Source: Escherichia coli (GTDB lineage Bacteria > Pseudomonadota > Gammaproteobacteria > Enterobacterales > Enterobacteriaceae). Taken from it: a stretch of DNA of 64,000 nt. Location: the NCBI RefSeq assembly GCF_003018115.1, contig NZ_CP027457.1; one strand, written 5' to 3'. Below, piece after piece: positions 30,601 through 36,600 of this stretch; position 1 is the stretch's first letter; each line of letters opens with the position of its first letter. Position numbers: made by a program.

Positions 30601-33600
30601 TTTCCCCGTCTCAGTGGGCGGCAATAGGCGTGCTGGGGAGTCTGCTGTTTGGGCTGCTGACATATCTGACGAACCTGTATTTCAAGATTAAAGAAGACCG
30701 TCGTAAGGCGGCACGGGGAGAGTAGGTGATGAACCATGAAGAAATGAATCAGCGCTTCAGTCGTCTGGAAAATGAAATTGCTGAACTGAATAAAAAACTG
30801 TCGGTGCTGATGCCTTCTGAAGATGCAAACAAACGCCGAGATGAGCAGTTTGCTGCGTTTGACGATTATTGTCGGAAAGTGATGAGCAGAAATCTCGCAG
30901 AGTGTTTCAGTATTCATAATGATAATTGCAGTGAGCTGGAATGGGAGTGTAACCGGCCATCCTTTGTTGTATCCGGTGATGACGGGAAAATCACCATATC
31001 AGAAAATGGAAAAGTAACACTGCCATCGCACCAGCACAGTGAGACGCTCATTGAATTTGCCATTGATTACCTGAAGAACAATAAAAAACAGGGGCTGATG
31101 CAGCGCATTGGTCGTTGCATGGGGTATCTGCAGGTAGCCGCTGAGATTGAAGCGCTGGCCAGTGGTGCGGACAAGGATTCAGTTGTGCGGGAGGCTCTTC
31201 TTCGTGAGTTTGACAACCCGCCCTTTAAAAAAGTGCCGGCTTACTGGTTTCATCCCGGACTGACTTATCTGAAAGGGCGGTTTGGGGAGAGGTTATCTGA
31301 ACTTAAGCGATAGTTTATTGAAGAGCCGTTTTTTTTGCAGACAGGCAAAGTTTTTATCCCATGAACAACCCGGGTGACTGAGTTCGTCATTAAACCATTT
31401 GTTAATGTTGTGCTTCAGATGCTGAAGCATCAATGGTGTTAATGTGGTGATAATGATATCCAGAGTTTCTGTTGAAAGCATGCCGTAAGGCTCTGAGAGA
31501 ATGGCCTGAGTGGCCTCGCTGTTATCCGGGATAAGCGCTTTTAATTCTGATTTAACATTTTCGTTCATTATCTGCAAAAACTCTTTGCGTAAATTGTTGT
31601 CATTATTATTCATTTATAAAATCTCATTTGTTGTTACCGGGTGTGTCCTGGTGCCTGTTGATTATATTCATCGTGAGTACCGGATTATATATCTGACATA
31701 TCCAGGAATAAGAGAGCTATAAATCCTGATAAATATCCATGAACGCAAAAATCAAATACGGCCTGTCAGCTGCCGTTCTGGCGCTGATTGCCGCAGGGGC
31801 TTCTGCGCCTGAAATCCTCGACCAGTTTCTGGATGAAAAGGAAGGCAACCACACCACGGCATACCGTGATGGTGCGGGTATCTGGACCATCTGCCGAGGT
31901 GCCATCATGGTGGATGGTAAGCCTGTGATTCCTGGCATGAAGCTGTCGAAGGAAAAATGCGACTGGGTTAACGCTATCGAACGGGATAAGGCACTGGCAT
32001 GGGTGGAGAAAAACATCAAAGTGCCACTGACTGAACCCCAGAAAGCGGGGATCGCGTCATTCTGCCCGTATAACATTGGCCCCGGTAAGTGTTTCCCGTC
32101 GACGTTTTATAAACGAATTAATGCAGGCGATCGCCGGGGTGCATGCGAGGCGATTCGCTGGTGGATTAAAGACGGTGGCAGAGACTGCCGTATCCGCTCA
32201 AATAACTGTTATGGTCAGGTATCCCGTCGTGACCAGGAGAGCGCGCTGGCGTGCTGGGGTATCGACAGATAAGCAGAATATTTTGCTGAAAAATGACGTT
32301 GGCCAACGCGGACGGATAACACGAAATCCTGCGAACTGGCAAAATGTAAGTGAATAACGTCAGGAACATTATTTCACGCAGAGGCACCGTAATGGTGCCT
32401 TTGTCATTTCTGCGCTTCGCACAAGCGTAAATAAACCAAAGAACCTTTCAGGATGAGCCCTGGTGGATAACCGGCAGTGGTCTGGTTAACCCTCTTTGGG
32501 CTGGTTATTCCTGTGCGCAGGGTTCATCACTAAAAGGAAATAACCGATGAATATGATGACCGTGCCGTTTCACGGCGATTCTCTTTATGTGGTTAACCAT
32601 AACGGCGAACCATACGTTCCCATGAAACCTGTCGTTGAGGGAATGGGTATGACCTGGCAGTCTCAACACCGCAAATTGATGGAGAGATTTAAGACCTGCA
32701 TCATCGAAATGATGATTCAGCTCCCCGGTGATACTCAGCGTCGTCTGGTTATCTGTCTTGCTTTACGTAAACTTGCAGGTTGGCTGCAAACCATCAACCC
32801 AAATAAAGTTAAACCTGAAATCCGCGACAGAGTCATTCAGTATCAGGAAGAGTGCGACGATGTTCTCTATGAATACTGGACGAAGGGTTTTGTCGTTAAT
32901 CCTCGTCAAATGAGCGTGATGGAAGAACTCAATCAGGCTTGCGCTGACATGCAACGGGATAAAAACATTGTCAGTGTGTTTGCTACCGGGCTGAATGAGT
33001 GGAAACAGGTTAAAGCTGCGCATGTATCAAAAATCCGCACATTGATAAACGAAGCGAATCTGCTGATTGATTTTGTCCTAGCTGATACAGGCAAAGGGAA
33101 AATAACAAAGGCGGATTGATGGAGAGGTGGCTAATGATATCGGATAAAATCATAACGCTGACAAAGACCATTTGTGTGATTGTCGGCGTTTCATTTTCGC
33201 TAATGATGGTTGCTCTTTTTCTTTCCATAGCCTGGATGGCGTTGAGTTCGGTAGGGCTGGTGGGGTGAGCATAAACCGAATTATTTCCGCGTTTACCGTT
33301 ATTCTGCTGGTGGTCTGTGGTGTGCTTAGTCTGGGGCTGAATCATTACCGTGATAACGCCATCGCCTACAAAGAGCAGCGCGATAAAGCCACATCCATCA
33401 TCGATGATATGCAGAAGCGGCAACGTGATGTAGCAGAACTTGACGCCAGATACACAAAGGAGCTTGCTGATGCTAATGCGACTATCGAAAGTCTCCGTGC
33501 TGATGTTTCTGCTGGTCGTAAGCGCCTGCAAGTCGCCGCCACCTGTGCAAAGTCAACGACCGGAGCCAGCAGCATGGGCGATGGAGAAAGCCCAGGACTT

Positions 33601-36600
33601 ACAGCAGATGCTGAACTCAATTATTACCGTCTCAGAAGTGGAATCGACAAGATAACCGCGCAGGTTAACTACCTGCAGGAATACATCAGGACGCAATGCC
33701 TGAAATAATTTTTTTGCAAATCACAAAGTCCATTTAATGAGCCCCGCGATGCGGGGCTTTTTTATGTACGCAGTAAACGCGCTTCACACGCGCGACTTAT
33801 GAACACAGAACCTTTCAGGATGACCCTTGAGGATGCCGGTTTGGTGATCGGTGCCTTTCTGTGGGCCGGAATCCTGTGTGACAAGGTTCATCACTAAAAG
33901 GTGTGCACTGATGAATTATCCAACTATCGTTAACGGCATCGATTTTCGAGATCTGATTTTTGTGGCAAACAACGATCCGGTTACAGATTCTTTTATGGTG
34001 GCAAAAGCATTTGGAAAGCTGCCGAAGAACGTAGTTCGTGACATTGAACGAACCATAGAAGCTTGCCCTCCTGGGTTTGATACAAAGCTCAACTTTGAGC
34101 TTTGCTATAAAAACAATGAGTTACAGAATGGTAAGCCGCAAAAATTCTACCGTCTCCGCAAGGATGGGTTGATGCTTTTGGTTATGTCCTACACCAAAAA
34201 AGAAGCAATGCGTATCAAAATTGCTTACATCAACGCATTTAACTGGATGTACGCCATGCTTCAGGTTGGTCATCGTCAATTTGAAGAAGAGAGAAATGCC
34301 GTAATGCTGGAGTACATGAAAGAGAAGGATGTTGCCAGCATGTCAGGTCGCCTGCTAAATCGCTGGGGCAAAATTAAGAAGCCACAGTTGCTGGCTAGAA
34401 TTGAACGCCTTGAACAGCACGGGCAAACCGTAATCCCCGGACTCATCAATTAACGGCAGTACCGCGAAACAACCCAAGCCAGTAAGTGGGGAAATAACAC
34501 TGGCAGCCACTGAAAGATGAACCTCCAGCCTTATGGCAAAAAAGATTCTTTGTGGTGGCGGACTGATGGAAAGACATCGGTTATTGCAGAGGCCATTCAA
34601 TGAGTGGTCTCGACAATGGCTTATACCCTACACGGGATAACTTAATTGATATCCTTTTTAACGGATAAAGGCATTTCAGCCTGACATAGCCATGCGCCGT
34701 ATCGTCGCCGTATTCCTGCATTAACAGAGACCGCAGCCCGACAGGGAGACTCCTCTGCGAGAGTGTGCGGGGATAATCAAAAACGATACACACCGGGGTT
34801 TACCGCGTTAACGGAGCGCGGCGTTGTCCCCTCATGGTCGCTGGTCCGGTGCGATGGTGGAAGAAACTGGATTTTGTTGCAACTGATAACCATTATCATT
34901 TTACGGGTCCTTTCCGGCGATCCAGGCCGTTACGGGGCGGCGACCTCGCGGGTTTTCGCTATTTATGAAAATTTTCCGGGGAAAATCATGTCGGTACTTC
35001 TCGAACATAACTATTTGTTTTTTCTAATATCGAATCCGTAAAGGTCCGACATGAAAACGCCTGAAAAAGTCATTTTCGGGCACTTTCATGTCGGACCCTG
35101 TATTTGTTGTGAGACTGTTTCATGAAGGTTAATAAAAAGAAACTTGCCGAAATTTTCAACGTGGATCCGCGAACGATTGAACGCTGGCAGTCTCAGGGGC
35201 TCCCTTGCGTCTCCGGAGGTGGTAAGGGCGTTGAATCTGTATTTGATACCGCCACGGCAATTCAGTGGTATGCGCAGAGGGAAGCTGATATCGAAAATGA
35301 AAAACTCCGTAAAGAGGTTGAGGATTACAGGGCTGCCAGCGAGGCAGATCTCCAGCCTGGGACTATTGAGTACGAACGCCATCGACTTACGCGTGCGCAG
35401 GCTGACGCCCAGGAGCTGAAGAATGCCAGAGACTCCGCAGAAGTGGTGGAAACCGCATTCTGTACTTTCGTGCTGTCACGGATCGCAGGTGAAATTGCCA
35501 GTATTCTTGACGGGATCCCTCTCTCAGTACAGCGGCGTTTTCCGGAACTGGAAAACCGACATGTTGATTTCCTGAAACGGGATATTATCAAAGCCATGAA
35601 CAAAGCAGCCGCGCTGGATGAACTGATACCGGGGTTGCTGAGTGAATATATCGAACAGTCAGATTGATATTCTGCGGCGTGATGTACGCGCCGGGCTGCG
35701 AGCCCTGTTCAGGCCGGAGCCACAGACTGCCGTTGAATGGGCGGATGCCAGTTACTATCTCCCGAAAGAATCCGCATACCAGGAAGGGCGCTGGGAAACA
35801 CTACCCTTTCAGCGGGCTATCATGAATGCGATGGGCAGCGACTACATCCGTGAGGTGAATGTGGTGAAGTCTGCCCGTGTCGGTTATTCCAAAATGCTGC
35901 TGGGTGTTTATGCCTACTTTATAGAGCATAAGCAGCGCAACACCCTTATCTGGTTGCCGACGGATGGTGATGCCGAGAACTTTATGAAAACCCACGTTGA
36001 GCCGACCATCCGCGATATTCCGTCGCTGCTGGCGCTGGCTCCGTGGTATGGCAAAAAGCACCGGGATAACACGCTCACCATGAAGCGTTTTTCCAATGGT
36101 CGTGGCTTCTGGTGCCTGGGCGGTAAAGCGGCAAAAAACTACCGTGAAAAGTCGGTGGATGTGGCGGGTTATGATGAACTTGCTGCCTTTGATGAGGATA
36201 TTGAACAGGAAGGCTCTCCGACGTTCCTGGGTGACAAGCGTATTGAAGGCTCGGTCTGGCCAAAGTCCATCCGTGGCTCCACGCCCAAAGTGAGAGGCAC
36301 CTGCCAGATTGAGCGTGCAGCCAGTGAATCCCCGCATTTTATGCGTTTTCATGTTGCCTGCCCGCACTGCGGGGAGGAGCAGTATCTTAAATTTGGCGAC
36401 AAAGAGACGCCGTTTGGCCTCAAATGGACGCCGGATGACCCCTCCAGCGTGTTTTATCTCTGCGAGCATAATGCCTGCGTCATCCGCCAGCAGGAGCTGG
36501 ACTTTACTGATGCCCGTTATATCTGCGAAAAGACCGGGATCTGGACCCGTGATGGCATTCTCTGGTTTTCGTCATCCGGTGAAGAGATTGAGCCGCCGGA

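Follow-up and report, generated by a model that had tools for sequence, protein, structure and literature searches.

Two paralogous leaders before ant and rha of an Escherichia coli prophage belong to a large family of structured RNAs, probably translational operators

In this work we ask what kind of RNA stands before ant and rha, two antirepressor-family genes located in the late region of an Escherichia coli prophage. The window, which is the whole analysed stretch of 64,000 nucleotides (nt) from contig NZ_CP027457.1 (assembly GCF_003018115.1), is 100% identical to a prophage of E. coli O178:H19 strain 2012C-4431. In the initial annotation two elements, A upstream of ant and B upstream of rha, were regarded as paralogous structured leaders of about 85 nt with compensatory base changes, and as candidate riboregulators of the c4/IsrK class. 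Our computational analysis supports the former view and speaks against the latter. A and B are members of a large, unannotated leader family in enteric prophages, and on balance we think it probable that they serve as cis-acting, doubly pseudoknotted, bistable translational operators for accessory genes of the late operon. They are made up as follows:

32411-32549 (+): full unit of A, from the small hairpin P0 to the AUG
32444-32537 (+): leader core of A, helices P1-P4 and apical domain (model R2, 76.3 bits, E 6e-15; fold; family covariation)
32444-32448 with 32533-32537 (+): P1 of A, CCUUU paired with AAAGG of the Shine-Dalgarno (SD) region
33778-33913 (+): full unit of B, from P0 to the AUG
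33811-33901 (+): leader core of B (model R2, 95.6 bits, E 3e-19; fold; covariation)
33811-33815 with 33897-33901 (+): P1 of B, CCUUU paired with AAAGG of the SD region

The kinship of both elements is apparent from two strings, each occurring exactly twice: the 16-mer GAACCTTTCAGGATGA (at 32441 and 33808) and the 17-mer GGTTCATCACTAAAAGG (at 32521 and 33885), for which 0.41 and 0.05 matches, respectively, are expected by chance with 3 mismatches allowed. As had been noticed, a terminator and then a small GC hairpin (32411-32429; 33778-33794) lie upstream of each element, A leads into the SD and ATG of ant (32547), and B into those of rha (33911). Both fold as a long interrupted hairpin and better than their shuffled versions, A at -42.5 kcal/mol (z -4.1, 0/200) and B at -33.7 kcal/mol (z -2.2, 6/200).

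Covariation among homologues is very strong. In the alignment of 45 distinct sequences (A6), 92.4% of the cells in paired columns are standard pairs and changes on both sides are found in 28/30 pairs (250 cells). The covariation score equals 0.49, compared with at most 0.083 when the partners are slid by 1-3 columns, and was reached by 0/500 shuffles. Many pairs are split near evenly between Watson-Crick types (GC 24/AU 20, CG 23/GC 20, CG 23/UA 20). RNAalifold run on a plain MAFFT alignment gave poor structure, with the HK446 type misaligned, and was replaced by model-guided alignments. G-U cells (73) outnumber A-C cells (23) among the paired ones, and the leader model scores 95-117 bits on the forward and at most 25 bits on the reverse strand; the RNA is thus the + strand, that is, the mRNA.

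From 5' to 3' the common fold consists of P0, a single-stranded A/C-rich linker of 10-14 nt, the interrupted stem P1-P4 (a quasi-continuous duplex of about 22-28 bp), an asymmetric internal loop and the apical domain. The base helix P1 joins CCUUU with AAAGG of the SD, and all its five pairs, SD bases included, covary (columns 4-10 with 126-133). The closing helix had previously been read as GAACC/GGTTC; covariation within the family replaces it by CCUUU/AAAGG together with GGAUGA/UUCAUC. The local hairpin TCAGG/CCTGG did not hold either, as 80% of its cells are paired with essentially no double changes and one pair fails in 25/45 sequences. Only a small number of unpaired positions reach 90% conservation, conserved ones including UCU..GGgC of the apical loop, and in types of 80-85 nt the apical domain is deleted or remodelled.

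The same data bear on the notion that these stretches encode a small protein or a leader peptide. Leader B is overlapped by a 32-codon hydrophobic open reading frame (ORF; MNTEPFRMTLEDAGLVIGAFLWAGILCDKVHH) at 33799-33897 (+), ending at a TAA within the SD region; this frame is intact in B, and in A the same frame is hydrophobic. In A, however, it stops after 5 codons, core lengths in the family vary from 80 to 102 nt with indels of 1-2 nt among close relatives, and substitutions preserve base pairs, not codons. Since the frames are unconserved, the coding explanation was rejected and retains hardly any credit. Given the early stop in A and the frame-breaking indels in relatives, the ORF in B is probably fortuitous.

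The hairpin P0 takes part in the first of two pseudoknots, here called PK1:

32411-32429 (+): P0 hairpin of A, UGCGCUU/AAGCGUA (from the fold)
32418-32422 (+): P0 loop of A, CGCAC, complementary to 32513-32517
32513-32517 (+): internal-loop strand of A, GUGCG, PK1 partner of the P0 loop (-6.0 kcal/mol)
33778-33794 (+): P0 hairpin of B, CGCGC/GCGCG, with the loop UUCACAC at 33783-33789
33876-33881 (+): internal-loop strand of B, GUGUGA, PK1 partner of loop bases 33784-33789 (-6.6 kcal/mol)

Both P0 and the asymmetric internal loop are conserved across genera. In essentially every type the P0 loop finds its complement in the 3' strand of the internal loop, and this is achieved by about 19 different pairs, among them AUCUCAC/GUGAGA, UUCACAC/GUGUGA (B of the window), CGCAC/GUGCG (A of the window), AUUCCCC/GGGGAA, UUCUCG/CGAGAA, ACGCCC/GGGCG, AUUCGUAC/GUACGAA, ACCGAAA/UUUCGG and ACUCACC/GGUGAG. 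Because the pairing register shifts by 1 nt between types, a count in fixed columns was abandoned and an alignment-free permutation test was used, in which cognate partners gave a mean of -6.69 and permuted ones of -2.85 kcal/mol (z -10.1, 0/20000). As the P0 loop and the internal loop covary, the functional unit spans P0 to the AUG, which makes about 136-139 nt, and the length of some 85 nt assigned earlier is too short. Two other readings of this part of the RNA were discarded: the internal loop does not follow the K-turn consensus and is explained by its pairing with the P0 loop, and an IHF site in the linker (WATCAANNNNTTR) is a partial match only and is unconserved.

The second pseudoknot, PK2, involves the start codon and the apical domain, in which four segments can be distinguished:

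32468-32474 (+): segment 1 of A, UAACCGG, 5' strand of the apical switch, complementary to 32482-32488 and 32501-32507
32482-32488 (+): segment 2 of A, CUGGUUA, proximal partner, complementary to the spacer before the ant AUG
32501-32507 (+): segment 3 of A, CUGGUUA, distal partner of segment 1, rod extension
32541-32549 (+): segment 4 of A, UAACCG and AUG, spacer and start codon of ant, PK2 partner of segment 2
33834-33839 (+): segment 1 of B, UGCCGG
33847-33854 (+): segment 2 of B, AUCGGUGC, proximal partner, an 8-bp complement to GCACUGAU at the rha start (-12.1 kcal/mol)
33866-33870 (+): segment 3 of B, CCGGA, distal partner of segment 1
33905-33913 (+): segment 4 of B, GCACUGAU, overlapping the AUG at 33911-33913; spacer and start codon of rha

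Segment 1 has two downstream complements; with segment 2 it forms a hairpin and with segment 3 an extension of the rod. In A this is seen as an insertion of TAACCGG that is matched twice by CTGGTTA. The central helix described in the initial annotation (GGATAACCGG/CTGGTTATTCC in A, GGATGCCGG/CCGGAATCC in B) is therefore real, but is one of two alternative covarying pairings. Among 18 type representatives both are cognate-specific (1:3, z -5.2, 0/20000; 1:2, z -3.0), and folding with one or the other strand blocked gave an energy difference between the 1:2 and 1:3 states of -1.8 +/- 1.9 kcal/mol.

Segment 2 is moreover complementary to the spacer between the SD and the AUG, usually together with AUG bases (5-8 nt ending in AUG). 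This complementarity yields z -4.8 in the permutation test (0/20000). Set against shuffled spacers, its mean is -7.0 compared with -3.6 kcal/mol; 58% of the sequences reach p<=0.05 individually, and the pairing ends 0-2 nt from the end of the AUG. Ten variants of PK2 were found: UCGG/CCGA, AUCGGUGC/GCACUGAU (B, 8 bp), UGGUUA/UAACCG (A), UGGCG/CGCUA, CAUCGUG/UACGAUG, GUGCU/AGCAC, GCGUA/UACGC, AUGGU/ACCAU, GUGAC/GUCAC and GGUG/CACC. Within the B type itself a double change replaces AUCGG/CCGAU by GUCGG/CCGAC. Complementarity between an upstream strand and the start region had been proposed before, and this part stands, but the covarying strand is the proximal one (32482-32488 in A) and not the distal one that had been named. 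Both copies read CTGGTTA in A, so that A alone cannot discriminate them; in the permutation test the distal strand showed no significant pairing with the AUG spacer (3:4, z -1.0), which makes the PK2 effect specific to segment 2. With P1 and PK2, both the SD and the start can lie in covarying helices of the same mRNA, which is the defining feature of a cis-regulatory leader sequestering the ribosome-binding site.

In the prophage, the genes on the + strand are arranged in the order R, ant, Rz, rha, followed by the small and large subunits of terminase:

31739-32272 (+): R, endolysin
32383-32409 (+): intrinsic terminator after R, GGCACC/GGTGCC stem with a T-rich tail, read from the sequence
32547-33119 (+): ant, 190 amino acids, P22_AR_N (Pfam E 7e-46), the gene presumably controlled in module A
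33708 (+): end of Rz
33739-33764 (+): intrinsic terminator after Rz
33911-34453 (+): rha, 180 amino acids, Phage_pRha and ORF11CD3, the gene presumably controlled in module B

The terminator at 32383-32409 is upstream context of module A and need not belong to the RNA unit; most but not all members of the family have an equivalent terminator before them. A sigma-70 scan of the intervals between terminator and leader revealed no promoter-like site, and promoter hexamers checked by eye in other genera gave no fit either, so that the leader is most likely read within the Q-antiterminated late mRNA. All copies examined belong to the late transcription unit, where they are found after the lysis genes, between R and Rz, or after the tRNA cluster downstream of Q. 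In the 10-25 nt between the T-run of the terminator and P0, short conserved strings (GTATCTGCA, TTTCACC) recur across genera, as seen in L167-L205 and many viral loci; they might represent a processing site or terminator context.

The c4 RNA is a processed, diffusible molecule of about 77 nt, two loops of which (a', b') pair with a2/b2. Were A and B of the c4/IsrK class, each would be a discrete processed antisense RNA of about 80 nt acting on the ribosome-binding site of ant or rha. Like P1/P7 c4 and isrK, the leaders occur in prophages upstream of antirepressor-type genes, here before two members of the antirepressor family, and, as in c4, an upstream segment of the same transcript pairs with the translation-initiation region of the downstream gene, a strand complementary to the start region being the very principle of c4. 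The Rfam check, however, gave no C4 or isrK match on A or B. Searching 32300-34000 with Rfam 15 at E<=10 returned unrelated weak matches only, with no C4, isrK or Lambda_thermo (RF01804); A and B thus stay below the gathering scores of C4 (RF01695, 45 bits) and isrK (RF01394, 50 bits). For six further leader types (eight loci) only tRNAs were obtained at E<=0.1. Genuine members of both classes are present elsewhere in the same prophage:

19678-19754 (+): isrK (Rfam, 61.6 bits)
19779-19866 (+): C4 (Rfam, 82.4 bits)

This pair is situated immediately upstream of another Rha-domain ORF, which ends at 20475, and the leader model R2 has no match in the region (19678-19866). Classical c4-type control and the new leader type are hence both present in one prophage, on different Rha/Ant genes. 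The architectures also differ, there being no homology in sequence or structure: in place of the C4 outer stem and its two hairpins with a'/b', the covarying fold consists of P0, the long interrupted stem P1-P4, a three-way or rod-like apex and two pseudoknots. While isrK ends in a Rho-independent terminator, the terminators found here lie upstream of the elements and none is seen between leader and ATG; the base of the stem is the mRNA's own SD. Lacking a 3' terminator and containing the SD, the leader belongs to the mRNA and is not obviously a small RNA in its own right. Unlike in the diffusible c4, its pairing strands reside in one continuous SD-containing RNA, to which the P0 pseudoknot and the bistable apical helix are added. 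We consider membership in the c4/IsrK class very unlikely.

The pairings suggest how a cis-acting operator of this kind could function. Each element would form the 5' leader, about 136-139 nt long, of the downstream gene's mRNA inside the Q-antiterminated late transcript of a lambdoid prophage. From the pairing we infer translational repression: with the SD held in P1 and the start codon in PK2, the regulator would be weakly translated from an abundant late mRNA, which would keep potentially harmful regulators low. Switching would follow from the choice of segment 1. Its pairing with the distal partner would free segment 2, which could then cover the AUG, and the near-isoenergetic alternative of 1:2 and 1:3 may set or time the availability of the start codon. 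By the order of synthesis, the hairpin (AUG free) would appear first and the rod with PK2 (AUG covered) later, leaving a brief translation window for each transcript. PK1, a tertiary pairing at the junction of the lower and upper stem, would be the obvious hinge for the fold-back of the apex. As for the trigger, a kinetic window after transcription, temperature, a protein factor and RNase III are equally open candidates.

Several points weigh against the operator. The putative translational repression is deduced from pairing alone, and the SD stays in P1 in both apical states, which means that the 'on' state is not fully open. Complementarity for PK2 is weak or rearranged in L136, in L014/L073 and in the short Citrobacter/Pseudocitrobacter type, and the distal helix is only 71% paired by fixed columns in a region that aligns poorly. 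The permutation tests ignore phylogeny, and several representatives have the same segment pair. Because alignments A4 and A6 were fitted to the model, their pair counts are inflated; the helices are nevertheless secure owing to the effect size and the slid controls. For PK2 to form, moreover, the apex has to come back to the 3' end of a 26-28 bp stem, which would seem feasible only with a bend at the PK1 junction.

A bolder claim is that the leader is a true switch which releases antirepressor-like regulators from late mRNA on a phage or host signal, or after a certain time has elapsed, and thus represents a new class of complex-folded RNA. We put this forward tentatively and regard it as rather doubtful. 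If it were so, the late phase of one prophage would be linked to the fate of co-resident prophages, Shiga-toxin (Stx) phages included, and the old finding of Rha harm in IHF-deficient hosts might be explained.

The principle of a leader that sequesters the ribosome-binding site and has alternative structures is already known. The lambda cIII mRNA, as reportedly described by Altuvia et al. in 1989, adopts two exclusive conformations of near-equal energy, one of which occludes the start, and their balance sets translation. The present leader resembles it (Lambda_thermo, RF01804) in the alternative structures of similar energy within a phage mRNA; cIII differs in having two nested folds around the start codon and no pseudoknots, in being much smaller and in concerning a single gene, and there is no Rfam match to it. 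In the MS2 maturation gene, according to what van Duin et al. are said to have found, an upstream sequence pairs with the SD and closes a multi-helix domain, and translation would be possible only before the final fold is reached, a small hairpin serving as a kinetic trap. Long-distance SD pairing that closes a multi-helix domain is common to our leader and the 5' untranslated region (UTR) of this A-protein gene, whereas the sequences are unrelated and the genome of an RNA phage contrasts with the late operon of a dsDNA prophage; neither a start-codon nor a P0/internal-loop pseudoknot is known from the MS2 5' UTR. Compared with MS2, a kinetic mechanism for the leader is a hypothesis.

Another way to see the complex fold, with its two pseudoknots and a bistable helix, is as a sensor, either riboswitch-like or a protein-binding operator, in which a small molecule, a phage or host protein or temperature would flip the apical switch and open the start codon by binding or melting the compact fold. 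The few conserved unpaired positions (UCU..GGgC of the apical loop) would suit such a role, as would the U-rich P1 strand lying on the SD, which is akin to fourU thermometers. FourU and ROSE thermometers also place a U-rich strand on a purine-rich SD at the hairpin base (CCUUU/AAAGG here), but they are short simple hairpins, whereas P1 is the last of many helices in the leader. Invariant unpaired nucleotides are, however, very few, the apical domain is lost or remodelled in the types of 80-85 nt, unlike a ligand pocket, and the downstream proteins are too diverse for autoregulation. A sensor is in our opinion unlikely.

We judge much the same of an element for RNA processing or stability, in which the duplex would be an RNase III site uncoupling the accessory mRNA from the late polycistron; following cleavage in the A/C-rich region, P0 would become a protective 5' stem-loop. 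RNase III sites are known from the lambda N leader and from between T7 genes. The quasi-continuous duplex of about 22-28 bp, the position directly after a terminator within a long operon and the single-stranded A/C-rich linker all agree with it. What it leaves unexplained is the covariation of segment 2 with the AUG spacer and the dual partners of segment 1, and a pseudoknot between a loop and an internal loop is not normally needed by RNase III sites. Processing is compatible with a translational operator, and plausible as its additional role.

The family proved widely distributed, HK97-like phages included. By BLAST, 292 phage records contain the A region and 188 the B region, the matched phages being Stx1 and Stx2 phages, Shigella 7888, Salmonella P22-like phages and Klebsiella phages. 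In HK446 a leader of diverged sequence, with matching changes on both strands, precedes a KilA-N gene. Pattern scans of viral contigs gave more than 160 loci and 61 distinct core sequences. With models R1 and R2 the element is detected in more than 160 viral contigs, immediately before a variety of genes, and R1 detects further divergent copies within the same prophages. Among 36 KilA-N loci, which come from a protein-anchored search of contigs with one genome per species, R2 finds the leader upstream of the KilA-N homologue in 24, where it ends about 6 nt before the ATG. These KilA-N-linked leaders represent more than 15 genera of Enterobacterales, including Serratia, Pantoea, Kluyvera, Pseudocitrobacter, Rahnella, Rouxiella, Photorhabdus, Xenorhabdus, Pectobacterium, Symbiopectobacterium, Dryocola, Raoultella, Citrobacter, Enterobacter and Superficieibacter; outside this order, no leader was seen beside the distant KilA-N genes of Oceanisphaera or of an Endozoicomonas relative. 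A single degenerate DNA pattern for all leader types was dismissed for genome contigs as too unspecific by a bit-count estimate. In complete E. coli genomes B-like leaders occur in 807/5426 (about 15%), at 2288 places and up to 8 per genome, and no annotated feature covers the RefSeq copies among the matches listed. The presence of two copies had earlier been called unusual. Two per prophage turned out to be ordinary for the family, and several prophages have two or three modules, though the exact 4-kb arrangement of A and B is rare (20/5426 E. coli genomes).

Genes downstream of the leader encode P22_AR_N, Rha, KilA-N (with or without P63C), ANT/KilAC, HNH endonucleases, a TerB-domain protein and unknowns. 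The HNH endonuclease genes (HNH_3; L005, L018, L066) lie next to the terminase region behind B-type leaders, and as they share their leader with antirepressor-like genes, it is not confined to DNA-binding regulators. A GC-rich version of the module (P0, leader, SD) stands before the TerB-domain gene at L029 3273-3402 (also L031 9618-9709 and L007 2150-2241); in Stx-like prophages this TerB-type module is located downstream of the tRNA cluster and upstream of sialate esterase and the lysis genes. A 2026 preprint places the small RNAs PasA and PasC near TerB and holin genes. The Pas small RNAs end in terminators, and they were rejected as the identity of the leader.

The occurrence of one leader on so many unrelated genes (P22_AR_N, Rha, KilA-N, ANT, HNH, TerB), and the mosaic phylogenies of leader and gene, would also be expected if the stretch were only a DNA boundary or linker, by which accessory cassettes are exchanged through homologous recombination, with no function as RNA. 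Double compensatory changes in 28/30 pairs and the strand-specific excess of G-U speak against this, and three covarying long-range complementarities are not expected of a recombination linker. We find the DNA-only explanation highly improbable, although the leader may additionally be a recombination linker.

No description of the leader family was found in the non-subscription full-text literature searched, which covered lambdoid late leaders, rha and IHF, the Stx lysis cassette and prophage small RNAs; the family and its design of two pseudoknots and four segments appear to be new. If the operator is right, a widespread, highly structured RNA stands unannotated in some of the best-studied phages (P22, HK97-like, Stx), and the late operon of lambdoid phages, usually presented as being under Q antitermination alone, would gain a post-transcriptional layer. 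Among the genes behind the leader are those of antirepressor type and KilA-N, Rha and HNH genes; their dosage can determine whether a prophage is induced and hence whether Shiga toxin is released. For studies of RNA switching and co-transcriptional folding, the many compensatory variants that nature offers for both pseudoknots and for the bistable helix would provide a ready system.

Phage P22 (NC_002371) carries one leader, between Rz1 and rha (48.6 bits), and the Rz1-rha intergenic stretch of this well-curated record has no annotation. The annotated GTG start of P22 rha (orf201) at 39575 falls inside the conserved leader (39540-39633), while the ATG at 39645, with GAAGG before it, fits the family layout and gives a product that aligns by eye with the N-terminus of Rha from the window. 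On these grounds the annotation has probably placed the start of P22 rha 23 codons too far upstream. As in P22 sar/ant, an antirepressor gene of a P22-type phage would be restrained post-transcriptionally. However, sar is a separate antisense transcript with its own promoter, annotated in immI, whereas the leader belongs to the sense strand of the late operon and stands before rha and related genes. According to PMC4936722 (its references 67-69), phages phi80 and P22 are blocked by their Rha when the host is deficient in IHF, and rha is reported to be regulated by IHF. Before the B-type rha leader of the window there is no promoter-like site, and none is annotated before that of P22 rha; IHF regulation might for this reason act via the leader or its processing.

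Other small RNAs of the window matched Rfam at gathering score. STnc100 (194 bits) was located at 27471-27684 (+), some 3 kb ahead of the lysis genes. Close to where the window begins are MicL (371 bits), at 3543-3850 (+), and ES036, at 7786-7828 (-).

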